Below are positions 22,975 to 46,189 of a stretch of DNA of 64,000 nt, in pieces. The DNA comes from Psilocybe cubensis. Taxonomy: Eukaryota. How positions within the stretch are numbered: the stretch's first letter is position 1; every line of letters starts with the position of its first letter. The notes beneath the pieces were generated by a model. The model worked only from the letters and a program-made list of their open reading frames with translations. It did not search any database and was not told where the DNA came from. The stretch lies in NCBI GenBank assembly GCA_017499595.2, contig CM039003.1, forward strand, positions 930,001-994,000, written 5' to 3'. Position numbers and translations under genes: made by a program.

Positions 22975-25900
22975 GGATGCTCAAATCCTCTCGTTGGACA
23001 AGTTTTTTGGAGAAAGCTCCTTGCTCGGAATATCACGCAACGTCCACATCGGACTCTGCCGGAAGCCCAATTTCATTGTCATGTGACCCTGGAACCATAA
23101 TCCTCGCCTCTCGATTGGCCTGTTCGTCTCCTGAACGGTCACCTCGTCTCGACGTCGTTCATTTATGCGATGCTTTATACACCGACACTGTGCATTCAAC
23201 GCAGCACAAAACGCCTCACGATACTCTTTATCCGGGCTTCCTATCGTGCTTTCCGGATGATGCCGCCAGACATAGCATATGCTGAATAAAATGTCAACAT
23301 TTTGTCAATATTTTCTGGAAAACGTCGTTTCTCGTGATCCACTTTTGTAATATCTCATGTCCGGGCGCCCCATCCAAACTCATGTTGGTTATCTGATACT
23401 GAAAAACAACAGTCCCTAGCTGCGCTTATTGGTCTTTTTTCGGACCAATGCGCATACTCTGCCGACGTTACGCGTACGTGACATGTTAATGCAGACAACA
23501 CCTTCAGCACACGTCCTCACGCGTATGAACGAAGTCACTGTCTTACGACAGCTCATACGCGTAAGAGATATGGTAAGTAGATTCGGCATGCACAATCTCT
23601 AATTAATTGATGATCCTTTCCGTCTAAATATCTAAAGTGACACCATTACAGCCTACGGTTGTTTTGAATGCAGCATTTGGCTGCGGAAAGTACACCCAAA
23701 TTATGACTTGCCCTCTGATTTGGTTTCACTGGCAAATCATGATATGTGTCAATCTTTCCGCACTGCGGGCTATCCGACTTACCAGACTACACATTTTTCC
23801 ATAAGTACCCAAAAGCATACCCGAGTCGTCCTGTTCATTCTCGGTACTTTCTCTATCCCCATCTCATTGTTTCTCGCACCCACAATGTTAAAGCTTGACG
23901 CTGAATCCGAGAACAATGTCCAACATCAACAACATACTGTCGACCTTCATACGCTGCCTAATAATTCTGACCAATTGACAACAGTCGGTGGCGACTCCCA
24001 GAATACTTTAGATGTTGTGCAGACTCTTGGTCGACTTGCGAAAAGGTACTCTTACGACGCCTTCAAATTCTTGTCGCTAACAACGACCCCGTTTCTTGTC
24101 TTAGTCGCGAAGATGCTGGGATACTGCCTCGAGAGTTAGGCGTCTCGTTTCGCGGACTTGAAGTTATTGGCCTGGGTGCAGCATCGTCTTACCAGGACAC
24201 CGTCGGCTCCATATTCAACCCCTCCAACATGATCAAGCAAATACAAGCCCAACGCCATCCGTCAACACGCCACATAATTTCTGGTTTCGAGGGCACAGTA
24301 AAACCCGGCGAAATGCTGCGTCAGTACCTCCCACCTAACCAATATTTTAAATCTCTTACTCACACAAATCTATCACCAACAGTCGTCCTTGGCCGCCCCG
24401 GCTCAGGCTGTTCCACCCTACTTAAAATTCTCACTAACAAACACGACGAGTTCCACTCCACGAGCGGGGACATCCTCTACAACACCTTCCTTCCAGGCCA
24501 AATCTCCGCCCACTTCCGCGGGGACGTGCACTACTGCCCTGAGGACGACATCCACTTCCCCACACTGACCGTCGGGCAAACCGTAGAGTTCGCCGCGCGC
24601 GTGCGGGCACCTCGGGCCGCTGCGCGGATGGGCGAGAGCAGAGCTCAGTATGCGAAGCATACAGCGGATGTGCTGCTCAAGCTCTTTGGCTTGGAGCACG
24701 CGCGGAACACGCAGGTGGGCGACGCAACGATACGCGGCATCTCTGGTGGGGAGAAGAAAAGGCTGTCTATTTGTGAGGCGATGGCGGCGAGGTCGTGCCT
24801 AACGTCATGGGACAAGTAATGAATTTTCGACGTCTATATGTTATTTGCATGCTGAGACCACTTTGTTTAAAGCGCGACCAGGGGACTCGACTCGTCAACA
24901 GCACTGGAATTTGTTCAGATTCTGCGAGCGGCAACTGATATCAACCGACTAACAAGCATCGTGTCGCTTTACCAAGCCGGTGAGCGCTTATATGAATTGT
25001 TCGACAAGGTCCGCAAAATTCCCTCCAAAAGAATGCAGCGTCTTGACCATTTTTCTATATGTCCAGGTCTGCGTGGTCTACGAAGGTAGAATGGCCTACT
25101 TTGGCCCTGCCAACCAAGCCCGCGACTACTTCATCAACCTCGGATACGAGCCCGCGCACCGCCAAACAACCGCCGACTTCCTCGTCTCCGTGACCGACCC
25201 TAACGCGCGTATCCCGCGCTCAGACCTCGCCCTCCCCGCTCCACGCACCGCCGCAGAGTTCGCGTCCGCCTTCACCCGGTCTGACATCGGCCAAAAGAAC
25301 GCGCAGAGCGTGGACATCTTCCGCGCCGAGCTGCAAGCTGATAGGAAGGTATCGGAGGTGTATGTAAAAAGTGCTAGGGAAGAACATGATAAGTTGGCTA
25401 GAGCTGGCTCCTCGTATGTCGCATCGCTGCCAGCACAGGCAGCGGCAGTCATGCTCAGACGAATTCAGATACTTCGGGGGGCACTGGTGATATCTATCAT
25501 TAATATGGTGTACGTCTTCTCCGTTATCTATAAGCTATTTGCCTTCGCTCACACTGCAGGTTTACCCAGCGGATACATCTTCCAAGGAATAGTCCTCGGC
25601 ACAACCTTCCTCAAGGAACCAGCATCCACGAACTCATTCTTCTCGCGCTCTGGCATCCTCTTCTTGTAATTAATCTCACAAAAATGTTAAAACAAATGAA
25701 AAACTCACTACCAACCTACCCGCTATAGCTCTCTTTTTTTCTTCGCTTTGATGGCACTACCCGAGATCCCCGCTCTTTTTTCCCAACGGCCTATCATCCT
25801 ACGACACCAGCAAGCTGCGTTCTACCATCCATTCATAGACGCAGTTGCGTTGACACTCGTCGACGTTCCTGTAACATTTCTCAACTCGTTGATATTTGGA

Positions 25901-26544
25901 GGGATCATATATGGCCTCGTGGGGCTGGAGAAAACCGCTGGACAGCTTTTGTACGTCACATCCAATCTTCCTGGCTATCCATTGTCTTCTTTATGCTAAC
26001 GGGATTTGTGTATAGTATATATTTCTTGTTTGTGTTCACCACCGCCCTGGTGATGAGAGCGTACTTCCGTTCATTGGCTGCAATGTGCGCAAATAGACCA
26101 CCTTAAAGTGTAGTATAGTATACCTGACATACCACCAAGATACGTACCCTACATACCACCTAATTCAACAACCAACATCATATTTGTACTTTTCTCATAA
26201 GACACCGGTAAATGTGTATTCAAGTTAACCCATACCTACACCTACTATATATCATCAATCTACATCTGAAACCTCTAATCCAAAAACAGTATTCATTGGG
26301 TATAGAATGAGCGTTCAGCTCATTTGACATCTGACGGGTCAAAATTCAAAATAGATTTCTCACAAGACAGTGATCGTGAGAAAGGTCATGTGAGCGTCGG
26401 GACTTTGACATTTACATTTAGAAAGCTGCAATCAACTTGAACGCGAGGCTTGTATTGAGATGAATAAAACTTGAAACATTGTAGATTTCGCATCTGAGAT
26501 CTGAGAATGTGATTTATACATGCTAGAAAGGAGCGCGGAAATCC

Positions 26545-27530
26545 ACATTTGGAAGGCTGAAGGTTGCATGAATATACATCTAGAAATGTTATTTGATGCC
26601 TCTTGGTGTCGGAATCAAAATGACATCTGTGAGCAGTAAATTAACCACAATAACATCTGTGAATGAGGTTTAGTTTGCTGGAAGGGGCGTATAAATCAAC
26701 ATTTGGAAGGTTAAATCTTGCATAAATACAGATCTGGCAATGCTATTTGACGGTCCTCGGACTCGGAATTAAAACAGCATCTGGCAGGCTCAACATTGCA
26801 TGAATACACATCTGGAAATGTTATTTGATGCCTCTCGGAGCCGGAATCAAAATGACATCTGTGGCCAGTAAATTAACCACAATAACATCTGAGAATGAGG
26901 TATATGCTTGCTTGAAGCGGTGTGTAAATCAACATTTGGAAGGTTAAATCTTGCATAAATACACATCTGGCAATGTTATTTGATGGTCCTCGGACTCGGA
27001 ATTAAAACAGCATCTGGCAGGCTCAACATTGCATGAATACACATCTGGAAATATTATTTGATGCCTCTCGGAGCCGGAATCAAAATGACATCTGTGGCCA
27101 GTAAATTAACCACAATAACATCTGAGAATGAGGTATATGCTTGCTTGAAGCGGTGTGTAAATCAACATTTGGAAGGTTAAATCTTGCATAAATACACATC
27201 TGGCAATGTTATTTGACGGTCCTCGGACTCGGAATTAAAACAGCATCTGGAAGGCTCAACATTGCATGAATACACATCTGGAAATGTTATTTGATGCCTC
27301 TCGGAGCCGGAATCAAAATGACATCTGTGGACAGTAAATTAACCACAATAACATCTGAGAATGAGGTATATGCCTGCTTGAAGCGGTGTGTAAATCAACA
27401 TTTGGAAGGTTAAATCTTGCATAAATACACATCTGACAATGTTATTTGCTGTCCCTCGGATTCAGAATCAAAACGGCATTTGTAAGGTTAAATGGGCCAT
27501 GAATACACATCTTGCAATGTTATTTGACCC
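26545..27530. repeat. Subterminal tandem array, 233-bp unit, about 4 copies
   Basis: GGCTCAACATTGCATGAATACACATCTGG starts at 26787, 27020 and 27253 (period 233). Flanking copies are diverged. Each unit has several CATCTG/CATTTG motifs. Confidence 0.93.
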
Positions 27531-28084
27531 CCCTTGGAGACGGAAACAAAAAGAGATCTATGAGGCCATAAATCATGTTATATATAATCTGAGAATGCCT
27601 ATCAGATGCGCTCAACATTGCTGTGCCAAAATTAATTGTTAGACCTTGAACCAGCACAAACATCTGCAGAAAAAGAAAAAATTCAGTAGTGCTATGGTTG
27701 TATAATAGGCTGGGTAGTCTTGTTGACTGCCCCCCTATTTTATTGCTCCTGTAGCTTCCTACCAAAAGTCAGTAGATTCTGTAGATTTCTTAGTCATATA
27801 TGTAGCTTTTGTAGTCTTCTGTAATTTTAATAAATAGTATAATATTAATCTATAGGTACTACATTGCTAACTATATATTTTTATGCGCAATTTAATATTG
27901 AGTAAAAATCATTAATAGGACAGTTGATATCATTAATATCTTTATTAGCCATTCTACTCCGTCCAATTAGCTGACTTTGGATAGTAAGCCTCCATCCAGT
28001 CTAACAACATATTATACCTCTATCTAACTCTCTTCAACTTGTCTACTATCAGAATCTGTTAAGTAAATAACAACAGAAAAGATA

Positions 28085-28155
28085 TGGTTAGGACTAGAAT
28101 TGAACCAATGACTCCCAAGTATGTTGCCAATACTTTACCACTGAGCTATATGACC
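28085..28155 (-). pseudogene. Degenerate tRNA-like sequence
   Basis: Minus strand reads GGTCATATAGCTCAGTGGTAAAGT...ATTGGTTCAATTCTAGTCCTAACCA, with A-box TAGCTCAGTGG and B-box GGTTCAATTC at tRNA spacing. The T-stem pairs; the anticodon stem does not. Confidence 0.65.
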
Positions 28156-28339
28156 TATAAATAGATTGAGAGTTATATGTCAATATCCACTATTGAATCC
28201 ATTATTTGGACTCTGTGTTTGTTTGTTAACATTGACATTAGTATTGTTGTTATTCCACTTATTCTATTCCATCTAATTCCATATCATAAAATCCCATAAC
28301 TCAATTGACATTTATGCTATAGTCCATATTGTTTTGTAA

Positions 28340-28411
28340 AGTCTTATGGTCTACTGGTTAAGGACAGTCTATTTTTGGCTAAGGTTGACAGTTCAATCCT
28401 TGAGCAGGCCA
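28340..28411 (+). pseudogene. Degenerate tRNA-like sequence
   Basis: AGTCTTATGGTCTACTGGTTAAGGAC...GACAGTTCAATCCTTGAGCAGGCCA, with A-box TGGTCTACTGG, D-arm GTCT/GGAC and B-box AGTTCAATCC; 72 nt. Confidence 0.55.
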
Positions 28412-28739
28412 TTTATTTCGCTCGCAGACTACAAAGTCTATAAGTATATTGTAAGTACTACTGTATGTTGCATGGGCCTTGATTATATAGTTTCCATAAA
28501 TTACTGTATATTGTGAATACAATGTATTAAACCTATGTAATGAAAATATATTAGATAATGATGTTATGTAAGGCTACTAAGTGCAAAAAAGGCTACTGGA
28601 AAGTGTGGTTACTACGGTGTCTACTGTAATATAGGTGTGTACTACTGAAAAAAACCTTTTCCGCTGATGAATTTCCATTCGAAAGTTTGACTTGACAATG
28701 TAGGATATGATTTGCATACACTATCTGTACTCTACTGAG

Positions 28740-31700
28740 CTATGCAGTATCAATCTGCATAGTATCATTAACATCATCAATTCCATATGTAACAACCTTG
28801 ATGCCTTTTAATCTCGCCTTCAATTCTTCCCCAAGGCGAGTGAAAGAGACCATCATTAGATGTGTCTCACGTGAAAATTTCCCTCGTGGTCGGTGATCAT
28901 TGTAGATATCGCTTGCGGTCAGCATTGTTGCCGAAGTGAAAAGCTTGATCACAAATGCGCGGATGCGAGGCGGAAATACATCAGTCTTCATTGTTTCTTC
29001 AACGCTTTGAAGTTTGGGATTGGTTGATCGGATTGACAGTGTCTTCCAGAAGTAAAAGTCAAGGAGGACATTGTCTATAAGGCATCCACAATTCATGTGG
29101 CCTTCCTGAGGCGCAGCGCTATAGTCCGCACGGTAGGCCACTCCAGCTATATGGGTTTTGTTATCGCACTTCTTCACCATCGAGCTACGTTTGTGATAGC
29201 GGCACACTAGGTTGAGGTGAGAGGTCATGTGAATCCCAAGTGCAACTTGGCGGTGTGTAATGCACAGCTCAGGATGCATAAACTGAAGCATTCGTAACGC
29301 TTTACGATGCTTGACCTTCAGACTTGGGAGTTTTCCGGTTTCTAGGAACTCTTGAATAGAATTCTGAGCCCCATCTACTAAACTTTAGTGATCCATATAA
29401 GTAGAATAAAGCTGTAAAACAACGCACCACTAAGCGCCTGAAGCTCCGCACCAGTCATCCTAGTATACGCCTCCATTGCCTTTCTAAAATCACCAGCAAT
29501 TCCATCCTCTCCAAAAGCACCGGACAATGAATCTTCCCCCTCTGCCACCGAGGGAATTTGGGGGACTAGAACATCTGGAACAGATCCTGTTGGCTGATGT
29601 GCAGATTTCTCTGGCCTCTTTCGAGTGTTCAGCTGATCACGAATGGAAGACAACTCTTGCTCAATGGTACGTAGCTTTTCTTGAATATCTGCAAGATTTT
29701 GACTTGTCGCCGTCTTGAGAGAATTGGAAACAAGGGTCCTTTCCTTTCTCAAAACTTTCCGTCGATCCTCAAGGGGCTTGCGGTTCTGCTGCTCTCGATA
29801 CGCACGTTCATGCTGGATAATTGCAGCTTGAAGTTCGCCCATCCGTGCAGTTGCTTTCTGACAAATATCATGGTTTGAATCGATAGCTTGCAAAGCACCA
29901 CGTATCTCGTCCATGGTTCTTTGTTTTGGGCTGCATATATCAGCCTCTAGCTCAGCTGTCTTGCAGTTAACCGAAGCAAGGAACTGGGAAATTTGCTCAA
30001 GCTCTGCCGTAATCTGTTTCTGCAATGGTGGAAGCGACCCGGAAAGTGGGGGCGAGATAAGAGACATCATGGCTAAATCAAAGATTTTCTTAGCTTATAG
30101 TTATAATGAGAATTGTAAATGCGAACCAGTTTGATGTTCTCTGTTGTCTGAGACAGGTATAGCCTTTAAATCCCTCATCTGTATTCGGTAGTATCCATCA
30201 GATGATAGGTTACACTTCAAGTCTTTGGATTACATTACCTTCTTTGTCTTTCTTTCAGATATATTAAGCTCCTTGCTACCAGTTACAATTTTATCAAGGT
30301 CTTGTAAGTCAGTGTCTTTGAATAGTTCCATTGCCTCAATAAAAGAATAGTCAATATAAAGTTGGAACCGCTAGTGTGGAACTGAAATTACCTCCTTATT
30401 ATGGTCCTCTAACCGATTTGATTGGGTTTCAGCATCGTCAACTGAGGTCGTTGGCACGGTCTGGCAATGAGTAAGAGTTAGATTTAACATATAGATATAT
30501 AGATTTGTGCAAAATGGCGTTCGGGACTCCAGATTTCGCAGTGGCATCATATCACATTCTAGAATGTTAAATTGTCAAACACTGAGTATAACTCAGCACT
30601 AAACCCAGTGAGATGCGATTTGGCATCTCAAAATGGAGATTTGGTTATATCTCCTCAGAATCAAGACACGCAATTTGGCACTGCAGATGTAGAATCCCCA
30701 AAAACAATATGCACGTACCATAATTGCATCGTCATTTACGTTCCCAGTATTCTGCACCACACATAAGCCAATATTTGACTTTGCACCGGTGCATATCATA
30801 CCTTATCACTTGTAGTCTCTACTACGTTATGTTTCTGAGAGTTCCCATTGATCATCACATTTGAACATGGCGCTTCCTATCACGGAGAAGAGTTGTATTA
30901 GGTTCAAGTTCATGCAATTGAGAAATAAGATGATAAAACACACCATTGGGTTTGACGTGTCTGTGTCAATTTCCATCATCCGGGAACCGTGATCCGGTGC
31001 TGTACTGGTAGAATTATGAACACCAGAAGAAGGAAAAGCTGCTGCGCTGTCAGCAGGGGTGCTAATAGGTGAATTGGCAGCCGGAGATGACGTTGAAGAG
31101 GGCCTAGGATCCATGGAATCATTTGAAGATGTTTCACCAGTAGGAGCAAAATTCGGAGCGGATAATGTAGTAGAAAGGGTTTGAGCAGTAGAAATCGAAG
31201 TCGGCAATTCCACAGCAGGCAATTTGAGGGCAGAAATGGAGGCAGACAGGAGTGCAGAAACGGGTGAGCCAGAAGCAAGACTGGGATCAGGCAATGCCGC
31301 AGCAGCAAAGTGAGTGACAGGTGAATTCTGCAGTATTGGATCAATCATGTCTTGCTGATCCAGCACGATTGCATTGCCCAGGCTATCACCCTAACAAAAA
31401 CAATACGTAGATTAGTTTTTAGGTCTTTAAAATATCCAGTAACACACCTTTGTGGTGTTGAGAGCTGGAATCTCTTCCATTTGTACGTTAACTTGCTCTC
31501 GCTTCACTTTCTTTCCACGGGGACCGTCAAATCTTGTCTCATAGGTCTCTCGGAGCCTCTTAACCTTCTCTTGAGCATCATGCAAGCGCTCTTGATCCTG
31601 CGCCGACAGTCCCTTAGGTGGCGCTGCCTTGCGCAAAGGCTGTTTTTTGGACTTTGAGGGTAGCAAGGACTGCATTAGCTCCTCGCATTCCTTCTCTGCC

Positions 31701-31860
31701 GCAACTATAGACAATTTGGAAATCAAAACAGACATTATAAACTGCAAATATCTTACCTAGCTCGGCTCTCTGCACCTCCGCATCGAGGTAGGAGAAATCT
31801 GCATTGTATTAGACCAATATCATCGATAGCGCCCAATGACTTACCAAACTCTGTTTGCAT
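28740..31860 (-). CDS. Transposon cargo gene, hypothetical multi-exon protein (Ser/Pro-rich and coiled-coil regions, C-terminal HMNCGC motif); may be more than one gene
   Basis: ATG at 31860 (MQTEFDFSYLDAEVQRAEL) splices in frame into ORFs 31427-31747 and 30827-31366. Further same-strand ORFs lie at 29378-30070 and 28740-29291. The middle exons were not fully resolved. Confidence 0.55.
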
Positions 31861-32120
31861 TGTACGTTCAAACCTCCAAAAATGACAATATAAGATGTGG
31901 AATTGTTCAAGCGTCGTCAAATTCTACCAGGTCTGTATCAAACAATTTGAAAAGTCACTCAATGTACATTTCAAAATGTCATTTTATGCTGTGGTGTAGA
32001 AAATATAGCATTGAAGAATGTAAATTACATACCAACAGGATGTCGGCTCAGCCCATGTGAGATGTCTTGGAATGTGTAATTCCTAATTCCCAAACTGGAT
32101 GCACCAGTAAAGCACACATT

Positions 32121-32532
32121 CCAGTCCGTTTAGTCGCATCAGGCTGCGTTGACTCGCATCAGATCGCATCCCAATCTCATATATGGTCCAAGCGGAATTC
32201 ACACTTTCCAGTCCGTTTAGTCACATCAGGTTGCATTGAGTCGCATCAGGTCGGATTTGCATGAGGTTGCGTTGAATTGCATGAGGTCGTATCCCGATCT
32301 CATACATGGTCCAAGCGGAATTTCAGGTAGTTGAAGCGAAGGCCAGCCACCAAGTACAAGATTGGATAGCCCTTACCCACCGGGTCCGCTTTAACTTCCA
32401 CCTTGCATCTCTTCCCCCCTTTCCACCACGAGGTCATGTGGGTCAAGAATATATAGCCCTTACCCACCGCGTCTGCTTTAACTTCCATCTTGCATATCTT
32501 TCCCTCTTTCCACCGCAAGGCCATGTGGGTCA
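32121..32532. repeat. Two adjacent ~87-bp tandem duplications between divergent cargo genes
   Basis: CCAGTCCGTTTAGTC at 32121 and 32208; ATAGCCCTTACCCACCG at 32366 and 32453. Confidence 0.8.
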
Positions 32533-32553
32533 CCGTTTAGTTTTACTTAGGAG

Positions 32554-33439
32554 ATGTCTTCTCAAGGTAAGGTTCCTATCTCCTCAGTCTTTTTGTTACT
32601 GCTTACTTATTTCTATTGTCAGACTCTGATAAAGGTCAGCTCGTGTAGACCGTCTCACTATGAAGTATTGAACTGACAGCTTATGTATGTAGGTGTGCCT
32701 TGCATTGAATGTCAATGTAAGGACTGCCAGTGTCATTGTCATTGTTCTGGTGCAACTGGAGATGAGCTTCCACCACCCGATGAGAGGTGGTATAGCGTAG
32801 TAGTTGGACGGTCTCCTGGCGTTGTCCAGGGACAGTAAGTCTTCTGTTTAACTTCTTGATTCTGAATGCTTATCTTGACTCCAGGGACCATGCAGAGCGT
32901 AACTGGAGGGGTGTATCTGGAGGTGCTGCTTTTTACTGTCCAGATAGGCCTAGTGCAGAGCAGCATTTTGTCTCTGCCTTGCATCGTGGCGAAGCTGTTC
33001 ATGTCATTCCTGAGGTTCGGATTAGACTTGGTAGTCAAGACCGTGCCACGCTTCCCGGATTCCGTGTGCATGACCCTTGTAAGTTTTCTAATCTTTCTGC
33101 TTCATATTTTAAATTATTTACTCCTTCCAATTAGATAGTCCTGAGAACGCAACTTGGGTTGTTGTTTCAGTGGGGCGAGAGCCCGGGATCTACCTTATTG
33201 ACTCCAGGTGTGTTTCAATCACTCTTTGTTAGTCCCGGTTCTCAAATAATGTATACAGCTATTCTGGATATGGTCTTACCCTTACCTCCAACGTGAACGG
33301 GGTTAGTGGCGGCCATGTCATTAAATTTAAAAGCAGGTCTGCCGCCGTAGAGGAGTTTGAACGCATGTTGTCGGTGTCATTGATTGTCCGTGTTGTTACC
33401 GAAGTTAGAGCAGTACTTATGTCTGATGGTGTGGAGTAA
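32554..33439 (+). CDS. Transposon cargo gene: Cys/His-rich N-terminus plus two RNase H1 N-terminal (hybrid-binding / caulimovirus viroplasmin-like) domains
   Basis: Six exons splice in frame: MSSQDSDKGVPCIECQCKDCQCHCHC...RWYSVVVGRSPGVVQGQDHAERNWRGVSGGAAFYCPDRPSAEQHF...TWVVVSVGREPGIY...SNVNGVSGGHVIKFKSRSAAVEEF...GVE*. Confidence 0.72.
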
Positions 33440-34477
33440 ACTATACATTCCTATGTAGTATGGATTGAAAAATTACATTGCTTATGAGTCTGGAAATGTG
33501 TTAATCAACTGCGCTTTGATGTTTAAGAGTGAAGCTGCTTCAACGTCAAGCTTTGTGAAGGCATCGGCTGTTTCCACAAATCAGGTAGCGTGAGAATCTT
33601 GACTTAGTCTCACCTGTGTGTTCACGTTAACGCTTCAAATGCTTCATTGATTGCTCAATCGTTCAACACAGACGTAATTCATCATCCCGAATGAGTCTAC
33701 CCAGACATAAAGTAGGTTTTGGCTACCTGATTAAAGAAACCCATGGTCTATTTATCAGCCATTTGATGCACAGTACTATGACGAGAGATTTGGGAACTAG
33801 AAAAAGCAGATTGTGAAAAGTCGAGTTTCTGACTTGAATGAGCAATCATATCACTGTAGAAGATGTTCTTAGGTTTGTGTTTTCCAAGTCAAGATGGTAG
33901 TTTAGTCACGTTAATAGAAAAGACTTTGAAAAACTCGACCTGATATCACTGTGAACACTTTCTCTATATATCTAGTCTTGTCAGACAATGTGCACAATTG
34001 TATCACTGTATAAAATGACTTGACACTCATGTTCTCTGAGTCAAGATAGTGGTTTAGTAGCGTTGATAGAAAATTCTTTAAAAAACTTGACCCCATTCCA
34101 TTATGAACACTTTCTCTATACACCTAGGTCTATACAGCAGTTTCGTCAACAGTAACAATGTTGAAATAATGTGTCACATTACATAGCTGTCTACAATGTC
34201 TGTTACAAGAGACACAATCCAATATATGTGTATGTGATGTATATGATCTAGTACTAGTCATTTGTATCATAGGAGCTACAGAATTTCGTGTTTAGTACTG
34301 AATGACAAGTCGCATACACAACTGGCAGTCGCATATCTGATGTATCTGAGGTCGCATACGGTCGGGCCGCATACCAGGTCACATACACCGCATTTATTCG
34401 TGCTATCACCTCGCATTTATTCATACCATCACAATCTTACATTCAAGCTTACCTTTACAAACATTGTCCTTTTCTTA

Positions 34478-35236
34478 ATGGCCCCCCAAAAACATAGCAA
34501 TCAACGTGTTGGTGCCGATGGAAAAACAAAGCATCAAAGATATTTAGAAAAGTATAACGCTATTCTCACTGTCTTCAGTGCTTACTGACAAACTTTTAAA
34601 GGAATCGCTCGAAAATATATGCTAACAATGCTCGACGAAATCGTGAACGCCGTCAAAGACAGTAAGACTCTTAATTTGTACACTACACATGACACATACC
34701 TAAAGGCTCTTAGAAAGATGGAATCTGCTTGTACTCCCTCCCCTTCTTCAACTGTATCCCTTCCTGAAGTCCCTGCCGACGTCTCAGAAACTCGAAATGT
34801 CTGTATACAGACCCATATTTCCCTCATCCATTCGTCTTCAATGCATCGACCCCATCCTCGGATGCAAATTGCTCGTCTCAGCACACCAGAATTAGACAAT
34901 GAGGAGTTGATGCATTTCAAGAATCGCGAAAAGTCACTGGAACTGCTAAATCGCACTGTCGAGATACAACAAGAAATCACACTATGGGAGGAACTAATGA
35001 GCGACAAGTGGTCTTATTATTATGGTTGGATTATCAACTTTGATTTTAAGGGTACCACATACGAGCAAGTGACGAGCGAGGTGATGGAAAGAGTAAGCAA
35101 GTTGCTCCATGAGTGGTGTGCACTTGTGACAGACTCGGTCCCACAGGATTTCGATTACAAGACTGCAATCAAGCATATACAGGAGCTTACCATTGCCTTA
35201 AACTTCATGCAGAAGTTGAGCGACAATTCTGATTAG
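34478..35236 (+). CDS. Transposon cargo gene, hypothetical protein with a basic N-terminal helix
   Basis: MAPQKHSNQRVGADGKTKHQRYLEK splices to NRSKIYANNARRNRERRQRQ and then into the long ORF ending at 35236. Confidence 0.55.
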
Positions 35237-35587
35237 TATTGTAGCTATTTTTCAATCCAAAACTTGGCAGTCGTCTTGTCTCTATGTGCATAGCTTCTTC
35301 ATTTGAACTTGTCCATGTGGTATAGTGGATAAGCAAAACTTTGAGTTAATTTGCAATGCAAATCTCTTGGATCCAATTCTTAATGCCTCCATGTTTAGCT
35401 TAAAAGGGCAGCACATTCAATTGCTGTAGCCAGTATAATCAGCCATGGAAATGATTTGTAGCAATCCCATGTGCAACCAAGTTCTGTGTCAAACACTGAT
35501 CACAAAGACAGTATATATCTACACCAATGTATGTGTCCAGTCTCACGATAATCTACGTTTGGCTTATCTATTTCATTCATATAGACG

Positions 35588-36266
35588 GGATTATTCTATT
35601 CAGAAACCCCAGAAACCCTAGAAACCCCATAGAAACCCCCAAAATTCATAAAATCGTTATGAATGTTGTGGATGAAGGTGTGATGAATGTTCAGAATGCC
35701 GTTTCGGCGGATTAGGTAGGAGCTTGTATTCTCATGCGGGCCGTTTCAAGTGGCCACTCGGGTGCGTAGGTGCAACTTCGCTCAAAAATGGAAAAAGCAG
35801 TAAATTAACAAGTTAAAAGCCTAGAAACCTCTGTATAATGTAGCTCTTTGTACCTACCACCACTACTATACTCTCTAGTAATTTTCTTGTATCTTATAGT
35901 ACTCTGGATGCCCTACCTCGGTGTTCATAAACATCAAATATGATATCCCCTCGAATAAATAACCGTTAAACGACTCGAAAGTCCACTGAATGTGTTTGGT
36001 GAGTTTCATTGGCACTATGGCTTGCATTAGAAACGTTAGCGTAGAGGAATTTAACAATTGAATGTATTTACATGAAGACGATCAACTACTGATTCAAAAG
36101 CAATGACGACGGCACGACACGGCAGACCAGAAAAGCTAGGTCGGACCTTAGACCTCCCATACATGTTCAAGCAGGGGTTTAGAATGTTGCTTCGAGGACT
36201 ATTCAGAAACCCCTGGGGTTTCTGGGGGTTTCTAGGGGTTTCTGGGGTTTCTGAATAGAATAATCC
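35588..36266. mobile_element. Nested MITE, Mutator (MULE)-like, 679 bp
   Basis: Near-perfect ~42-bp TIRs GGATTATTCTATTCAGAAACCCCAGAAACCC..., flanked by a perfect 9-bp direct repeat ATATAGACG (35579-35587 and 36267-36275). Confidence 0.9.
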
Positions 36267-36646
36267 ATATAGACGCTTCAGGGACTTCCATTGATCTGGA
36301 GTCTGCGATCAATGACTGGTACCCCCGTCTTGGCCAATGAAAAACACTTGTTTCACTTGATACAGACACCGAGCATTCCCTTTTTTCGACTTGTCAAGGA
36401 ATCTTCAGGAATGGCAGAGAAAGTGACGCATTTTTGGACCCTTTTTAATCCACATGAGCCCCTTTGTGATCCAGATTTACACATTGTGTTACGACGGAAG
36501 GATGTTCCGGAGCAGGCTTGCATAGGGTTGGATCGTTTGACTACACTAGTTAAGCTCAAGGACAGCTGGGTGTTTTAGATATGTAGATAACTAGCAAAAC
36601 AACTATTTACGCCCACTAAAAGAGCTGACAAATATGTACACAATAT

Positions 36647-37914
36647 CTAGCTAGGGAGTAAACCATGAAGCTCCTGATACCGAGCCAACTGTTGAGAAAG
36701 CAAACGCTGGCTGTCACGCTCTGCTGCTATTGCATGCTCCATCTCCTCTGCGTGGCGACGAGATTCCTCTAACTGCTGCTGGAGATTAACATTGTCCTGG
36801 ATACGAGCTTGGATCAAATTCCGGGTGATGGAAGAAAATTGAGTCCCAATATTGCCGGCTTGAGCTGCTGCATCTCTTCGAAGACGCGGAGAAGCGTAGC
36901 TAATTGCGCCAGAGCGAGCAGTGGCATGTTGTGCTCCAATAAACAGCCAGCAACCGGTTTGTTTGGACAGGCCTTCACACTGGAAGCAGTATCAGTCATA
37001 TAATCCCACAAACAAGCTAAAACTGACCTTTTCAACGATTGCATTGATGGAATTTGTGAACTGCTTTACCAGTCGAGTGTTTTCGGATATGGGTGACGGC
37101 AAACTGTGGCCTCGAACAATTTCTATGGTAGATATTGGGTTGGTTAGAGTAGAGAGTAATAAAGGATTTTGGATGTTTAATACTCACGATATACCTCAGT
37201 CCCACGAAGTGCGCCCTGCACATATCCATGGTACGGATTCTGAGCACTTGTTCTAGGTGGCTTAGGGTGCGAAGGAGTAGTACGAGTTCGCAATGTTAAC
37301 TGGGCCAAACTACTTGAGGTCATTGATAAAATTGACGCAGTTTCCTGGAGCAACGACGAGCTTGTTGGGGTTCCGGGCGCGGAAATAGATGGAAACGTTG
37401 TGCTTGGTACCGTTGCAGAAGCACTGGAGGTAGGGTGATCTTCTGGACCTGTCAGTGGTGCAGAAATTTCAGGCCTCTCATCGTTTTCAGAAGCACTTGC
37501 AGAACCACGTTCCATCGCATCCACACTAGGTTCACGCAGACTCTATATTAGAGTAGACAATAATGTTCAATGTCAAAACCGGAGTTCATAGTATTCTCTT
37601 ACCTGTAAAGCCTGTTGTTCCGCAATATACTGCTGCCCCTTTTTGGTATGGATGCACTGCGACCGCAAAGGCCTTCCCGGACATCTTTTACACCTAGCAT
37701 CCTGACGTGAAGCCTTGAAAAATGTGCTTCAGATGACACGTCATAACACAGCATTGAATGCAGACGACATACAGTGATAATGGGCCCCTTTTTAGTACCT
37801 CCATTGCGTTTCTAAAGATCTGTAAGACACTGAAAATTCTGGATAGTAACTTCTCACCTTGTGTGGTGTAGACTCTACCAGTGTAGAGGCCTTTGCCGCC
37901 CGCTGTTTTGCCAT
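36647..37914 (-). CDS. Transposon cargo gene, hypothetical protein with a CxxC-x8-CxH motif and C-terminal coiled coil
   Basis: ATG at 37914 (MAKQRAAKAS); one exon encodes ARCKRCPGRPLRSQCIHTKKG; Ser/Thr-rich ORF 37177-37524; last exon QQQLEESRRHAEEMEHAIAAERDSQRLLSQQLARYQELHGLLPS*. Confidence 0.55.
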
Positions 37915-38714
37915 TAATGTGGGTGGTAGGACAAGAGGAACAACTTGAAATTTGAAGACGCTACTGGAAATGTATATACATTCACACATTGATGAGTAAT
38001 ATCCTATCTTAATGGTCCATTTTACATCAACAGATGTCAAATTGAATTAGGCTAATATACATTGTACCCAGATACAAAGAGTAATTATCATCTAGAAATA
38101 TAAATCCTATGTAGAATGGCAAAACAAGGCTTGACATCGAGCAATGCAATGATTGATTAAGTCAGTTTGACATTTCTAAGTCCAATTCCCACAGCTCCCA
38201 CGGCCTTGTGACCGTCGGAGTTTTAACAAATGACTGATAAAATGACTACCAATTCTCATTTGTTTAGGCTGTTTATGGCTTTACTAACAATTTCTCCAAT
38301 ATATAAATGATTAATACAATACATATATCACTTTTTCAAAGGTGCACAGTACCTTGGGCAGTTTGTGCGCCGTTTTCAGTCACATCAGGGTACGAGGTAG
38401 GGGTGTCACATTTATGTGACCCGCGAGTCACAAAGGTCAACTTTTGACAATGTTTGCAGTCTGCACACCGGGGCATAAGCTGCTAAGGTATGAAAGGTGC
38501 ATGGTTCAATAGTGTATGGTACTTGGTATGATTTTGTGTAAAAAATCAATGTCACAGCCAAATGATTATAAAGTAATATCTACCTGTATGATTAAACAAA
38601 GTTATCTTGGCGTGGTATACTGGTATTTAACAAACCTAGCACTAATGGCTCTGTTATGTACACGTGTATTCTTTCTTCGCAACACATCTCTTGATTCACT
38701 TTGTGCATGCTCCA

Positions 38715-41700
38715 ATGAGCAGAACTCCTTCTCCAGTAATAGTCTATGCACCATTGCCGGAATCTCCCACACAGATAGACTATACTCCATTGCCAGACAT
38801 CCAGGGCTACGATATTAGCACTCCCCAGTGCAAAAGGAGAGTTGCTAAAGGAGCACGTCAAGGCAACACCAAAAAAAAAAGGCATGGCAATTTGAGCAAT
38901 GCTTCAATTGAGGATCTCTTGGATGACAATGAGCCATCTGATATGGCTATGATGGATGTTGAGCAAGGACCTGGTGAATCTGAAGCCAACATGAATGATG
39001 ATTCCGAGGATTTTCTGCAATTTGCTGAGGCAGTAGTGGCAGAAGAATGCCCTATCTTTCAGTTAACCGAGCGGATGTTTGTTGTGAGTGGCTGGAATGC
39101 AGCCAAAAGAGAGTCAAATGTGAGTATTATGTGAATATATTTGAAGAACTGGCTGACATCATTGTATTCAGAAATTCTGGTACCACGCTATGCGGGATAA
39201 TACCCAGGACACAGTTTCAGTTGTTTGTCTGTGTCCACTTAACCGGTTGCAAGCATGTTATCATGTGAGGTACCTGACCGAAGAACTTCCGCACAATGCG
39301 ACAGTAAACGAAGTATCTCTATCTGGTACGTGTGGCAGTGACCTTCATAGATTTGTAGTAAACTAATAATTGTGTATTTCAGCCTATCAAGAGGCACGAG
39401 CATTTCTTTTCTACAGAAACGAAGGTGTCATGGATAACTTTTATACCAATATTTTTTCAATCCCAACTTCCACACGATTTCCAACCATTAAGAATCGTAG
39501 CATTGTTGAGCATTATGGAGACGACTCTGGTAATGGGACATGGAAATGTAGCAGGGATCAAGGCGCAACATCATGCTCCCACATTGTACAAGCCCGTCAC
39601 GCACTGCAGAAGTATATTCATGGAGACTGGAATGCACAAGATGAAACCATTGATAGTAGTGTAGCTACAGATGGTGTTCAATTTGGTGGTACGCTTGTAT
39701 TTGAATGGTTCAAGTCCAGAGTATTTCTAACTAATGAAGTAGGAGTTCCATTACGACAGGTTTCTGGAGTTGCTGAATCAATTTCGTATAAGCGAATTCC
39801 ACCTCCCTGTTGGTCCCAAATTGGGGCAGACCCTCCTGCACCACCCAGAGTTATTTTCAACTCACCGCCATCATCTATTTCTCTAGGTGACAATGGCACA
39901 TGTATCTGCTCCAACCCTAGGGAATGTTTTGACCCATTTAGGCCGTCAATCGACAAAGAGTGTACTGTTTATACACTTACCGGTGCTTCTAAGGCAGTAA
40001 TCTCACTGCAACAATGTCTAAAATGCTCACACCGTTTTATTGGGCCAGAATGCAGTGATCTGGGTTTATTCAATTTCAATAACACCAGCCTCTTTGCCCA
40101 TGATCTGTTGGACGACTACACAAGTGCATTTTCCACCTCGGAAACTCCATTTATATCCTGGGTTAACACTGTGTCACGGCGCTATCAACTTCGTGGGTCT
40201 GACGTCCCCTTTGCAAGCGACAAGCTCTTTCGTGCTGCTTGGTTCTCCTATTCACGGCTATTGCTATTAGAAAATGACATGACCTGTTTAGAATGTGGCC
40301 CAAATCCCAAGGCAACAATATGGGATGGAGTAACTGTAGCATTCAGTCGTCAAATGCTTCTACCTTCGCTTCATCCACCAACGTTAACAGGTCCCTCTTC
40401 AATTGAGAGGCCAGAGGTTCATCCCACATCTAATCTGCACGCTATTCCAAACCGAAATATTCGTATACTTATCCGATTCATTCTCAAGGGCCCACCACTC
40501 ACTACACTGTCAACCGAAGCAGAGGTCACAGAGGCTAGTCCACATTTTGAGAGAAACAAGAAAATTGTAGAACGCCTATCAAAAGTCTCGGAACTAGTCA
40601 ACAAGCTTTCCAATATTAACACACATCTAGGTAATCTGTTTAATAGTCAGTTTGGACTCTCCGCTGTTTTCAGAAAGCAATCCATCCCTGAAGTTTACAT
40701 TAAATTCTTTCTCCAGGTATTTTTTTTTTATTCTGCATAATTTTCACACCAGTACTCATGTCCTACAGGTCGCTGCGGATGAGTCAATCCTACAAGCCTT
40801 ACCATATCCTTCAATCTTGAGCCTGAGGCGATTTCTACGAGATCCTAGTGCACAGCATATTACCTGGTTGCGATATACACCTTTCATTCAACGTGTCATC
40901 CAACATGAAGTGCGCTTCGGGAATATTTCAGCAGATACCTTAGCAGTATGTGAGTGGCTCTACGTGCGGGCTATGGCTGTGTTTAGCATCATCAAAGTGC
41001 ATGATGGACCGGCCAAAAATGATGACACTGTCAATTCAAATATTGAGCAGGAAGATTGGCTTAAGGTACGTATATAGTACTCAATCATATCTTCATGTGG
41101 TGTGGTATACTTATGCCATAATAGACAGGCTGCCACTATGCAATGGCACAGATCCGTGAACGGCCAAAATATCCCAACCTCCCATATGAAGCCGGAAATG
41201 ATCTTGTTGGCGCCAATGAAGATGAGGACACTTGTCATAAGTACTATTCAACATATTCCAAGAAGCGCCTCACCGGTGGAATCATGTGTGTCTGGTGCAC
41301 ACACAGTGTTTGCTACGGTTTCCATTGCATCCGCGCAGCCGAAGGCCGCAATGATGTATTTTCAGCAATATACACACGGTGGAAACAGGCTCCGGAGGTC
41401 ATCGTCTACGATTTTGCTTGCGCACTTCAACCCTACTGCATGTCACGCGAGCCAGACTTCTTCAAAAACACGCGTTTTGTGATCGACATTTTTCATTCCA
41501 GTGAACACAAATGTGGGGAGGCCTGTTTCTTGGCCACATACTGCCAGGAAAACCCAGACCTTCTACGATTGAACTCAAGTGCAGCGGAATGTGGCAACAG
41601 TGGTATTTCCAAGATCAGGAAAGGGGTTAGTTACATGACTCAAGACCGTGCTGTCATGTATATGAAGGTTTTTTTTTCATTATGGAATCGACAGCAGATC

Positions 41701-41733
41701 AGAAAAATGGAAAGGACTGGGATTAGGAACTAA
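38715..41733 (+). CDS. KDZ-type transposase (SWIM-like fingers, CxC cysteine cluster, DDE core; HMGXB3/CxC4-like)
   Basis: CLCPLNRLQACYH and CSRDQGATSCSH fingers; CLKC..FIGPECSDLGLFNFNN cluster; CLECGPNPKATIWDGVT (D1); LTGGIMCVWCTHSVCYGFH; EGRNDVF; VIVYDFAC (D2); IDIFHSSEHKC (DxxH); NSSAAECGNS (E). No stop seen in the exons. Confidence 0.85.
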
Positions 41734-44700
41734 TGTACTGTCTTTACATATTTAAATGTGCATGGAAATTTGTACATGAGTCGTAATTTCTCATTTGTAG
41801 GCGTCAATTTATGATCAACAAGGATATTCCACTGGCATTGGTTAAAACCTGTAATTACTGACCCCAAGGATGTAGATTGTACAGTGTTTACCAAAGTGTT
41901 GATTTGGCCTCGAGAGATGAAGATCTGTGCCAATTTCTCACATGCATACCGGGCAATCCAGCATTCAAAGTATGAGCATTCAAAACACATCTGTAAATAC
42001 GAATTCTTAGTTATTTGAAACGGTGCTGCAGATATAGACTCACAGTATGTAGATTGTGGTACATTCTCATAGTGTGAATTTAGCATTCAGAGATGAAGAT
42101 CCGTGCAAAATTTTTGCGCACAGATACAATCCAGTTTGCAAGGTACGAGTATCCAAATCACATCTGCAAATCCAAACTGTGTGCTATTCAACACATCTGC
42201 GGCTCTAAATGCAATATACATGCCAGGATGTCAATTCAAAGAGTCTCACAGGGTTGGCATTGCTGTAGTTGGAACGCTCAAAATACATTTGGTGATGTCG
42301 ATTATAATTGCTGGACAATCAACATTAATTAAACACATTCTGAGACGCTGGCCGCTCAGAGAGGAGATTTCTATGCAGGGGAGCCATTTAGCCCACATGT
42401 TGGGTAGCGATTACTATGGGATGTCGGGTACATTATATCTACTTTTACATATAGTCGTTAACCCGCAATGTGTGCGTTTGAGCGTAAGTGACATCTTTGG
42501 TTCAAAATCCACATGTAACACGGTCCTTATTCATATGACTAGCCACGGCTCAAATGCTTGCTGGGCTGAGCGTTCTCGCTATGTGCCTGTGCACAGGTAA
42601 GAGTTCCGAATCTGCTTTGCCTACCGCGAGATCAGTCCGCCAATATCACCCATCTTGACAGGGTATGTTATCCCAGAAGAGTCCATGATCTGGGCACTCC
42701 GCTGGATGACTTTCATCAACGTACGTTTATCCTTTATATATCCATGCCCTACCAATTCCAAACCCTCATAACAACAATTTATTGCAGCCTTTCAAATACG
42801 GCTTCGAAAGCCTCATGGCGAACGAGTTCAAAGACCTCAACGGGACGTGCGCCAGCATCATCCCTCACGGACCCACATACACGAATATAAGCATTGCGAA
42901 CCAGGTCTGCGCCGTTGTCGGCGCTATACCCGGTGAGACGCACGTCCAAGGGGCACGGTTTATCAAGCTGTCACTTGGGTATACTTACAGCCATCTATGG
43001 AGGGTGAGTCGATGTTGTCCCGTGAACTTGTTTTATGTATGTTCCTTTGGTTGACTTGTGGTTGTCGTATAGAACTTTGGGATAGTCATTGCATTTGGCC
43101 TGGCGTTCCTTGCCGCCCTTTTCATTTTCACCGAAATCAATACCAAATTCACTGGAGTAGCGACGATGATTTTATACAAACAAGGCGGAAATTCAGAGGA
43201 TGAGTCCAAACAACATGATTCCGATAGTGTCGAGATGATGATCATCGAAGACAAGGTATCAAAAGGCATAAAAGACAATGTGGTATCATCTGTATCTGGG
43301 TCAAGTATCGCTGAAGAGTATAGAAAGGACACCAGAGAATCCAGCGATGGGATATTCTCTTTCACTGGTGTGTCGTATACTATCCAAGCCGATGGAAAGG
43401 ATCGCAAGCTCCTGCAAGATATTTCTGGATACATCTCGCCAGGCTCTCTTACAGCGTTGATGGGAGAATCAGGTGCTGGGAAGGTGAGTCTTCCGATCGG
43501 CTTGAACTCGCACTGAATAAATATATTAAACGACGTTCTAGACTACTTTGTTGAATGTCCTTGCCAATAGGGTGGATGTCGGCGTCGTATCCGGTGATCG
43601 ATTCATAGGCAGGGAAAGCTTTACCAGAGGATTTTCAATCACAGACGTGAGTGTTCTAACCCAGCATGCAATGATATCACTTGACCGATTGCTAACTTAT
43701 CGTGGCTAGCGGTTACTGTCAACAAATCGACACACATTTACCGACGTCTACCGTTCGCGAAGCTTTGCTTTTCTCTGCCAGGCTGCGTCAACCATCTAGT
43801 GTATCAGATAGAGAGAAAGCGGAATAGTAAGTCGTGATTCAGGCATAGCTAGTTGGATTATATGCTTATAAATACAGTGTCGACAAATGTCTTCACATGT
43901 GTGGTTTATGGAATTACAGGGACGCCATTGTTGGAACTCTCGGTGTCGAGCTTCGGAAGCGAACCACAGTCGGGGTCGAGTTAGCTGCCAAGGTGCGTGG
44001 AACACCTGGCCAAAAATGGATTTCGATTTTTCATCGAATAAAACTTTCGTTAGCCTAAGTTCCTTTTATTCCTGGACGAACCTACGTCGGGTTTGGATTC
44101 TCAAACTGCATGGAGCATTGTCACGTTTCTACGGAGTTTGGCTGATCAAGGCCAGGCAATTCTGTGCACGATTCATCAGGTGAGGATCCCAGTCTTCAAA
44201 TTTTCTTTCGCATTCTGACCTATAGCACTAGCCTTCCGCTGAGCTTTTCCACGTAAGATTTCTGCATTCCCTGCATCCAATATCCTAACCAAATTGACAA
44301 TTCCAGGTCTTTGACAAATTACTCTTGCTCAAGAAAGGAGGACAGACTGTGTACTTCGGCGATCTCGGACATAATGCTACCACTCTCCTAGCTTATTTTG
44401 AGCAAAATGGTGCACGTCCTTGTGGAACTGATGAAAACCCGTAAGTTCTCATTTCATCTGGAGACTTATGCAGGTGAATTGAAAGCATGTTTTAGCGCCG
44501 AATATATGCTTGATGTTATTGGTGCTGGCGCTACTGCCTCAAGCGACATCGACTGGTATGACGTATGGAAAAAGTCCATCGAGAAACAGGCACTCGACCA
44601 GAAACTCCAACGCATACACTCCGAGGGAATTCGTGCACCCATAAACACAACAACTCTAGTGTCCGAATATCCAACGTCCTGGTCAAACCAGTTCTTTGAA

Positions 44701-46189
44701 CTGTTCAAGCGAGGCGCCTCTGATCATTATCGCAATGTGGAATACCTCATGGCCAAAATATCTCTCAACATAATTGCTGGGTTGTTTCTAGGGTTCACCT
44801 TCTTCAAAAAGCAGAGCAGCATACAGGGAACACAGAACAGGATCTTCGTACGTTCTAATCAGGCATCCAGTTTTACTGTATACTGACGTTGTCACGTTCA
44901 GGCGCTACATATGGCATTAATTATTGGGTACGTCGCTTTGGACGGTACTCTACCACGCTGACTCACTCGTTCTTAGCATACCATTGTCGAATCAGATTCA
45001 GGTACCTTACATCGCAACTCGCCAGGTCTATGAAATCAGAGAACGTCCCAGCAGAATGTACAGCTGGACAGCTCTCCTGACATCCCAAATCATCGTGGAG
45101 ATGCTCTAGAACTTCCTAGGCTCCTCACTGTTCTTCTTCGTCTGGTACTGGACCTCTCATTTCCCAACGCATGGGGCGGGGTACGGCTACCTCGCCATGG
45201 GAATCGTGTTTCCGGCGTACTACACAACCATTGCACAGAGCATTGCGAGCATGGCACCGAATGTCGAAATCGCCCAGCTTCTGTTTGGGTTCCTGTTTTC
45301 CTTTGTTTTGGCATAGTAAGCTGGTCGTCTCAAACAGGGATTTAAAAATTTGTTAACCATTGTATTCGCAGCAATGGTGTTATACAACCATACTCCCATC
45401 TTGGGTGGTGGAAATGGATGTAAGCGGTATTTTCTTATCAGTCGGCAGGCGGTTCTGAATCAAAGTTCTTTTTAAAGGTACAGGCTTTCTCCGTACAAAT
45501 ATATCCTAGAAGGTTTAGCTGGCCAAGGTATACTAGTCAAGCCAATATGAGGCCTATTAGCGCATACTCACCCAATACACTAGGTATAGGTCACCAAGAA
45601 GTCGCATGCTCGCCCATCGAGTTTGTCTCCCTTAATCCACCAGCCAACCAAACGTGCTCCCAATACCTATCCGACTTTATAACTTCCTCAGGCGGCTACC
45701 TCCAAAATCCAGACGCCCTAGAAAACTGTAGCTTCTGCCCCTTGAAAACAACCGATGAATTTCTCGGCCCTACTCTCAACATCTTTTACGACAATAGGTG
45801 GCAAAATATTGGCATCATGATTGCATTCATCATCTTCAATGTACGTCATTCCAGTCTCCTTACAGAAGCAGATATTGATGCGCGGACGTGTACAGATATT
45901 CACTATCTTTTTGTTCACGTACTTGTTCCGCATTCATAAAGGCAGCCTTTTGCCATGGTCGCGGAAGAACAATTAATCTATTGTAATGACCTTTCATCCC
46001 TCCGTATATCGCGGAATACTACCACTTAGTCTTCGTACAACAACGACATATAATTAATTCGTCTATCTTATACTACTCGTGACTCCACCTCTAAATAGAT
46101 GGTTTCCTTGATATTATATTATAAAGTTGATCGAGTCAGGGCCTTCTTCACTTTTGTTTGTGAGATCACGATCTTCAACGACTTCCAAC

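Follow-up and report, generated by a model that had tools for sequence, protein, structure and literature searches.

How does a transposase recognize the two ends of its element when the outermost bases of those ends are not alike? The question is raised by a 16.4-kb element in the mushroom Psilocybe cubensis, found in a 64,000-nucleotide stretch of DNA (GenBank assembly GCA_017499595.2, contig CM039003.1, positions 930,001 to 994,000 of the forward strand) that we call the window and to which all coordinates refer. The element belongs to the KDZ elements, large and poorly characterized fungal transposons that were only recently shown to be mobile and to cause drug resistance in Cryptococcus. 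It begins with CGCAAATA.. at the left and, read as the reverse complement, with GGGTTAAC.. at the right, and each end carries two copies of a 10-bp motif, TACCYNACAT, which we call boxes. An earlier note, made from the sequence alone, had proposed that the paired boxes define the ends in place of true terminal inverted repeats (TIRs) and are candidate binding sites of the transposase. The best overall explanation, in which we have moderate confidence, is that of a recently mobile, autonomous KDZ/Zisupton element lying in an exon of an ABC transporter gene, with its boxes bound by the transposase. The features of the locus are summarized in Table 1.

A recently mobile element in an ABC transporter gene

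Four public sequencing runs (X1, X5, X6 and X12) were compared with positions 25000-43500 of the window, and in three of the four the insertion site is empty. The empty-site joint 26079->42465, which skips 16,385 bases and at which 8-9 letters fit either side, is present in one contig of X5, one contig of X6 and 26 raw reads of X12 that begin at 20 different start places; it was found in 0 contigs of X1, the run from which the window may come. The empty alleles carry a single copy of GCAATGTG, the 8-bp sequence that stands on both sides of the element as a target site duplication (TSD). The empty-site alleles in X5, X6 and X12 thus confirm that this is a real transposon with the end points and the 8-bp TSD given in the earlier note.

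The same end points are seen from within the element. In both X5 and X6, element contigs start exactly at 26088 and stop exactly at 42464, and two element contigs of X6 extend 29 and 79 letters past the ends into sequence from outside the window, so the element also occupies another site, with identical end points. In X5 and in X6, the contigs of the left end depart from the window at 1 letter in 634 nt. The raw reads of X12 cover the flanks at a depth of about 32 and the inside of the element at about 12-16, and the element contigs of X1 and X5 have roughly twice the depth of the flank, a rough measure of depth and not of copy number; the contig and read depths are a rough sign of a low-copy family. 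The insertion is recent, and the element is mobile between strains.

The insertion point lies in a coding exon of the ABC transporter gene, within the first membrane domain, and the two parts of the host gene are contiguous in the X5 and X6 contigs. Since three other runs have the intact allele, the strain of the window would naturally carry this PDR-type ABC transporter gene either as a knock-out or as a heterozygous allele.

Structure of the ends

The two boxes at each end are inverted between the ends and spaced 24 bp from start to start, leaving a 14-nt gap. Between the terminus and the outer box there are 33 nt at the left (26088-26120) and 34 nt at the right (42431-42464). All the coordinates that the earlier note had assigned to the boxes are correct, and so is its observation that the extreme termini differ. 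TACCYNACAT matches 7 times in the 64-kb window against 0.87 +/- 0.84 expected, a number reached in 0 of 100 shuffles; four of the matches are the end boxes and the remaining three are at 39263 (-), 45003 (+) and 59584 (+). The pair with a 14-nt gap matches twice against 0.00 expected (0 of 100 dinucleotide-preserving shuffles). At the left end the direct repeat is longer than the box itself, covering 16 nt (the box plus ACCACC), and the longest direct repeat in the terminal 130 nt there is a 10-mer at spacing 24.

The claim that the boxes stand instead of true TIRs was overstated. The boxes are real, but the terminal 67 nt (left) and 68 nt (right) form a degenerate inverted repeat: in a global alignment 45 of 70 columns are identical (64%) with a score of 15, whereas shuffled ends score -6.9 +/- 4.1 and 0 of 5000 score as high. 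Between the ends, each box is identical at 9 of 10 positions and the spacer between the boxes at 5 of 14. The outermost 33/34 nt by themselves have marginal inverted similarity (167 of 5000 shuffles as high), and only one of the first five terminal positions matches, the element having the termini CG..CC. When 2081 position pairs around the transposase gene that share an 8-mer were ranked by inverted similarity, the true end pair came first, with a score of 19 against 8.2 +/- 1.7 for the pairs scanned. Neither the inverted-repeat listing of the window nor the end alignment revealed a long TIR at the element ends. The element ends are a degenerate TIR of about 68 nt. The two boxes do not replace a TIR but are the conserved core of this one; their occurrence is non-random, and no other part of the two ends is as well conserved.

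The imperfection of the ends is intrinsic, as the earlier note had suspected, and not the result of decay, because the insertion is polymorphic, the termini are identical at the other site and the transposase gene is intact (see below).

By eye, a possible third degenerate box with 2 mismatches can be picked out further inward on each side: TCCCCTGCAT at 42374-42383 (-), exactly 24 bp inside R2, and CAACCAACAT at 26167-26176 (+), 22 bp inside L2.

The transposase and its classification

The transposase gene encodes a product of 913 amino acids (aa) that is represented in UniRef by a P. cubensis protein (P0001). Aligned to the window by tblastn, P0001 falls into pieces at 38715-39119, 39172-40719 (with one small intron within), 40763-41086 and 41125-41733, and two window exons are 100% identical to it. 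The gene is intact, and the element is predicted to be autonomous. The Pfam family CxC4 (PF18717) is found with 148 bits (E 1.6e-43) in an open reading frame (ORF) of the window and with 147 bits at residues 329-457 of P0001, and the family KDZ (PF18758) with 30.2 bits (E 4.6e-7; cut-off 26.6) in the C-terminal exon, 41125-41733. Residues C154, C156, C164 and H166 are invariant in 26 homologs from Agaricales and follow the pattern CxCxnCxH (here C-x-C-x7-C-x-H). Several homologs bear the UniRef name "SWIM-type domain-containing"; the Pfam SWIM model was not reported for the transposase even at E <= 5.

The AlphaFold model of the transposase has a predicted local distance difference test (pLDDT) score of 78.1. 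For its core, residues 353-906, the best match in the PDB is the transposase of ISCth4 of the IS4 family (Z 10.0, root-mean-square deviation 4.8, 245 residues aligned), and the next are the Tn5 transposase (Z 7.8), retroviral integrase cores, piggyBac, MuA and Hermes (Z 5.8). A Foldseek search of the PDB with the full model returned nothing at E <= 0.001; its top rows, PUR-alpha repeats (E 0.04, probability 0.38), were too weak for use. The model shows a DDE enzyme of RNase H-like fold, into which a large helical segment is inserted. The element is a cut-and-paste DDE transposon that makes an 8-bp staggered cut in its target.

The element is filed in the KDZ superfamily as Zisupton type, by its KDZ and CxC4 domains and its 8-bp TSD and not by phylogeny. 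The Kyakuja clade was ruled out by the TSD of 8 bp instead of 7 and by the termini CG..CC instead of CA..TG, and the Dileera clade by the presence of CxC4, the absence of CxC1 in Pfam and the absence of a long TIR. The hAT superfamily was considered for its 8-bp TSD and rejected as well. No BED finger or hAT dimerization family was found by Pfam, nor any THAP domain, in 70 ORFs across 21189-46363 or in P0001, and the structural match to Hermes reaches a Z of only 5.8.

Related loci in metagenomes

Scanning metagenome contigs with the alignment of 26 proteins gave 257 stretches, 175 of which encode relatives; 80 were kept, and these make up 68 loci with 35-66% identity in the best protein segment. 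Right ends were mapped in two families, at the point where three copies diverge; both families are seen at the right end only. In family A (L001, L002 and L004), which ends in ...CTGCCCCC, there are two copies of the 10-mer TCACGGTGCG at a spacing of 47 bp (38 bp in L001), the outer one 33 nt from the mapped end, and a third, partial copy follows 55 bp further inward. In family B (L017, L024 and L025, copies 85-91% alike), which ends in ...GGGACCTATCCG, GTGAACG occurs twice in all three copies, exactly 24 bp apart, with the outer one 54 nt from the end. Both of these boxes and the last 21 nt are invariant in family B and the spacer varies; TA/TG-CCGACAT, which is like the window box, stands 20-29 nt from the end. 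Against background, a direct repeat at spacing 12-60 would turn up in a 130-nt window with a probability of 0.01-0.03 for a 10-mer and about 0.3 for a 7-mer.

A core CC(N)GACAT shared with the relatives is suggestive at most. Downstream of the transposase gene, in 84,046 nt, it is found 13 times in the expected orientation and 3 times in the other, 3 of the 13 coming from one family; upstream the counts are 20 and 13, with 8 of the 20 from a single array in L028. Inspection of the contexts yielded one notable near-match, in L044.

The left array of L028 (125-944), a locus whose best protein segment is 62% identical, holds CCTGACAT, which forms the core of box L1 in the window, 8 times. The right side that matches it, L030, has none of CCTGACAT.

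Complete related elements were sought in 23 loci by a combined scan for an 8-bp TSD and inverted similarity. Inspection of the candidates in L018, L068, L067 and L011 left no convincing one; L004 and L047 scored high only because their side arrays are inverted copies. Such inverted copies upstream and downstream are found in L004 (1-1300/13100-14500), L047 (1-1000/12450-12900) and L067 (660-1100/12700-12800). Since inverted flanking arrays occur in several long loci, an array-flanked architecture seems general in the clade. Each family has array motifs of its own, such as TATGGTG/CACCATA in L028, L030 and L016.

How the ends may be recognized

On balance, the boxes are probably bound, sequence-specifically, by N-terminal zinc-binding modules of the transposase and help to pair the ends and to place the catalytic core. 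The zinc-binding modules would bind the boxes, with two protomers or modules at each end, and this binding would bring the two ends together. The catalytic core would then sit about three helical turns outside the outer box, at termini of loosely specified sequence.

A number of points weigh against this proposal. We infer the binding of the boxes, the identity of the protein that binds them and the geometry. Within 130 nt of the element's own right terminus no exact direct repeat is longer than 5 nt, which is unremarkable; the KDZ Pfam family is reported for the C-terminal fragment only and not on a scan of the whole 913-aa protein; and ACATCTG-rich arrays near the ends are an alternative set of candidate binding sites. 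The earlier note had looked to conservation of the pair in other copies as a check. Other copies of the family itself are near-identical, so box conservation in them carries no weight and checking it there has almost no power. Among the relatives, the exact TACCYNACAT pair occurs in 0 of the 68 loci; analogous pairs of other sequence occur at the right ends of families A and B. A single exact TACCYNACAT is present in 5 of the 68 loci, with 4 of the 8 single matches in the one L028 array, and relaxed pairs at spacing 24 are confined to one array, in L016, and a single occurrence in L036, none of them at mapped ends. The left ends of the relatives were not recovered (for family A not within 10 kb; family B extends <=1.8 kb upstream). 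The parallels in families A and B were picked after looking, and in the family B copy L017 the longest exact repeat is only 7 nt, for which the background chance is about 0.3. The geometry also varies by family, the spacing being 24, 47 or 38 and the outer box lying at 33/34, 33 or 54 nt. Families so diverged would be expected to differ in motif.

A rather unlikely alternative is that the boxes have no special role and are the best-kept patches of an ordinary, tolerant TIR with an old internal duplication of 24 bp. The transposase would then read the whole end of about 68 bp loosely, or mainly the outermost bases. This would suit an alignment that extends over the whole 67/68 nt, with marginal similarity even in the outer 33/34 nt, and a repeat unit of 16 nt at the left end, as a duplication would give. 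It would also suit the conserved extreme terminus, CAGATATG or CGGATATG, in the left ends of Auricularia Zisupton elements, as far as the available part of the published account goes (Kojima 2025). Family B ends in the similar CGGATA, which suggests that terminal bases matter in the clade. A loosely read TIR is harder to reconcile with extreme termini that differ in all but one of the first five positions, with identity concentrated in the boxes (18 of 20 positions, against 5 of 14 in the spacer), and with family B, where the boxes are invariant in three diverged copies and the spacer is variable.

It is improbable that the main sites of the transposase or of an accessory protein are instead the ACATCTG arrays, the boxes being bound by the product of ORF2 or ORF3, by a host factor or by nothing. 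ACATCTG matches 27 times in the window against 10.48 +/- 3.06 expected and is clustered near both ends, with 17 matches in 26262-27666 and 3 in 41987-42199 (at 41987, 42160 and 42193). Of the 48 loci with >=500 bp of sequence downstream of the transposase gene, 28 have arrays within 1.5 kb of it on that side, and ORF2 is kept beside the transposase gene in many loci (see below). All these ACATCTG copies are on the + strand, however, and are therefore direct and not inverted at the two ends, which is unusual for the binding sites of a symmetric synaptic complex. Their distances, 170-1580 bp at the left end and 265-480 bp at the right, are too great for positioning cleavage, and the array motifs differ by family. 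Arrays and boxes may both be bound, the two not being exclusive.

Binding of the boxes by the transposase, which remains the reading we prefer, might also set the ends like a ruler, with the enzyme cutting about 33 bp outward of the outer box, irrespective of which bases lie there. We consider this quite doubtful. The outer box lies at 33/34 nt here and at 33 nt in family A, whose sequence is unrelated, but family B does not fit simply, since its paired box is 54 nt from the end and the CCGACAT that resembles a box is 20-29 nt from it. If true, a ruler would explain why the termini are unlike in one active element and why the element looks TIR-less to standard tools.

Finally, a paired motif arising by chance in AT-rich, low-complexity ends and having no function is very unlikely, for although the motif is short and degenerate, has three further single matches in the window and is not conserved in relatives, the pair is missing from all 100 shuffles and occurs only twice, in mirror image, 33 and 34 nt from independently verified termini.

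Internal organization

Two further genes accompany the transposase gene. ORF2 matches the protein P0034 at 98% identity and has homologs in 25 of the 68 related loci, where it is usually divergent from the transposase gene. The locus tag of its P. cubensis paralog P0035 adjoins that of the paralogous transposase P0002, and from these neighboring tags we take the pair of ORF2 and transposase gene to be a unit of the element. A second paralogous family is represented by the transposase/ORF2 pair P0003/P0036. Homologs of ORF3 were found by tblastx in 7 of the 68 loci. Besides the transposase, no Pfam family was found in the 36 stop-to-stop ORFs of >=75 aa inside the element, ORF2 and ORF3 included. 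Pfam likewise gave no TET/JBP gene inside the element, a scan that short or intron-split exons may escape. The three-gene, array-flanked architecture is common to many uncultured relatives and is useful for annotating such elements.

Two nested elements, both foreign, are later insertions into this copy and are absent from other copies. The first, of about 1 kb and non-autonomous, is skipped by a joint 27658->28670 (1011 bases, 2 shared letters) in X1, X5, X6 and X12; it is high-copy, with a depth many-fold over its neighbors in all four runs. Its termini and flanks fit PlavakaB in so far as that element is described in the available text (CATCA..TGATG, 2-3-bp TSD; Kojima 2025). The second, a miniature inverted-repeat transposable element (MITE), is skipped by a joint 35577->36266 (688 bases, 10 shared letters) in all four runs. 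Its TIRs are built of GGGGTTTCT-like repeats and it too is high-copy; judging by its long TSD, it may be Mutator-like in origin.

Upstream of the ABC transporter gene lies a gene for an M16 (insulinase-type) peptidase (21357-22963, - strand), which is ordinary.

Table 1. Features of the element and its insertion site (window coordinates; TIR, terminal inverted repeat; TSD, duplication of the target site; ORF, open reading frame).
Feature	Position	Strand	Basis
Whole transposon with its two nested foreign elements, 16,377 bp	26088-42464	+	Empty-site alleles, contig ends, end-pair scan
TSD, left copy, GCAATGTG, 8 bp	26080-26087		Sequence and empty-site joint
TSD, right copy, GCAATGTG, 8 bp	42465-42472		Sequence and empty-site joint
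Left degenerate TIR, 67 nt	26088-26154	+	Alignment to right end
Right degenerate TIR, 68 nt	42397-42464	-	Alignment to left end
Box L1 (outer), TACCTGACAT	26121-26130	+	Motif match; candidate transposase binding site
Box L2 (inner), TACCCTACAT	26145-26154	+	Motif match
Box R1 (outer), TACCCGACAT	42421-42430	-	Motif match
Box R2 (inner), TACCCAACAT	42397-42406	-	Motif match
Transposase gene, 913-aa product	38715-41733	+	tblastn of P0001; Pfam CxC4 and KDZ; structure matches
ORF2, 329-aa hypothetical protein	36650-37730	-	Divergent from transposase gene; homologs in relatives
ORF3, two ORFs, probably one gene with intron	28743-30094	-	tblastx homologs in relatives
Left subterminal tandem array, 233-bp period, 78/155 sub-units, ACATCTG-rich	26539-27673	+	
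Right subterminal 173-177-bp repeats, ACATCTG core	41849-42188	+	
Nested non-autonomous element, about 1 kb, termini CATC..GATG, flanked AA/AA	27661-28669		Joint and end reading
Nested MITE, 678 bp, TIRs of about 52 nt, 10-bp duplication CATATAGACG	35588-36265		Inverted repeat and joint
Host gene, 5' part, PDR/CDR-type ABC transporter	23636-26087	+	Pfam ABC_trans_N, ABC_tran, ABC2_membrane
Host gene, 3' part	42465-45936	+	Pfam PDR_CDR, ABC_tran, ABC2_membrane

Comparison with known systems

Annotation pipelines miss several KDZ elements because these have no detectable TIRs. The present element is cleanly bounded and apparently active, comes with an empty-site control and has two 10-bp candidate recognition boxes at each end. 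TIR-poor KDZ elements have already been published, namely KDZx1, in the portion of the preprint available to us (Huang et al. 2024), and Kyakuja (Kojima 2025); what is new is a well-bounded KDZ/Zisupton element with modest descriptive detail on its ends, and the kind of element is unchanged. In the literature, we found no KDZ element described as having paired subterminal boxes; Bohne 2012, Iyer 2014 or the bioRxiv supplements may cover the point. In the literature on P. cubensis transposable elements, none of the matches listed (by titles and abstract starts) is on this element.

The description of KDZx1 from Cryptococcus deneoformans, as far as the available text goes, is of an element with KDZ, CxC4 and SWIM domains, called Zisupton-type, that makes a TSD of 8 bp, shows no detectable TIR, carries one or more additional ORFs of unknown function and moves in the laboratory (Huang et al. 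2024, bioRxiv 10.1101/2024.08.15.608186). Compared by description, the window element shares with it the KDZ plus CxC4 transposase, the 8-bp TSD and extra ORFs of unknown function. Where KDZx1 is credited in that text with a SWIM-type motif, the window transposase has the invariant CxCxnCxH but no Pfam SWIM match. The size given for KDZx1 is 6.4 kb, against 16.4 kb here, or about 14.7 kb without the nested elements. Its host belongs to a different class of Basidiomycota, and subterminal boxes or arrays are not mentioned for it in the part of the preprint available.

The Zisupton superfamily was reportedly treated by Bohne et al. in 2012, a work that reaches us through Kojima's account only. 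The accessible sections of that account give 8-bp TSDs for Zisupton and Dileera, and 7-bp TSDs, CA..TG termini and no TIRs for Kyakuja; its introduction describes Zisupton as having TIRs (Kojima 2025, PMC12730594). In the same sections, the Zisupton families of Auricularia and Agaricus bisporus are large, with a consensus of at least 12.7-24.4 kb, and have 8-bp TSDs like the window element (Kojima 2025). The left ends of the Auricularia families have several short direct repeats, ACTCCCAA- and GTCCCAAG-like, in about the first 110 nt, and Zisupton-19_AB has a repeated AGAACCGG (Kojima 2025, PMC12730594); published elements, at least those covered there, therefore do show short repeats near their ends. 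According to these sections, the Auricularia and Agaricus families differ from the window element, in which no TET/JBP gene was found, in carrying such a gene, and they have other terminal sequences.

Kyakuja belongs to the same superfamily and the same host class (Agaricomycetes) and has no TIRs; it differs by its 7-bp TSD and CA..TG termini, against 8 bp and CG..CC here. The Dileera-type KDZ1, KDZ2 and KDZ3 of Cryptococcus neoformans are, in the available portion of their description, 9-11 kb long and mobile, with mostly 8-bp TSDs and extra ORFs. They have CxC1 and good TIRs of 139-241 bp in that description, whereas the window element has CxC4 and a degenerate TIR of about 68 nt.

Multiple transposase-binding sites inside imperfect, asymmetric ends are known from the P element, from Ac/Ds and Hermes of the hAT superfamily, and from En/Spm, Tn7 and phage Mu; the P element and hAT elements also have 8-bp TSDs. 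In these systems short recognition sites are repeated some tens of bp in from the ends, and long perfect TIRs are needed little or not at all. The transposases of these systems are unrelated or distantly related to that of the window element, whose core is nearest to the IS4/Tn5 type. By analogy, the use proposed for the boxes would resemble that of the internal binding sites in the ends of P, hAT, En/Spm, Tn7 and Mu.

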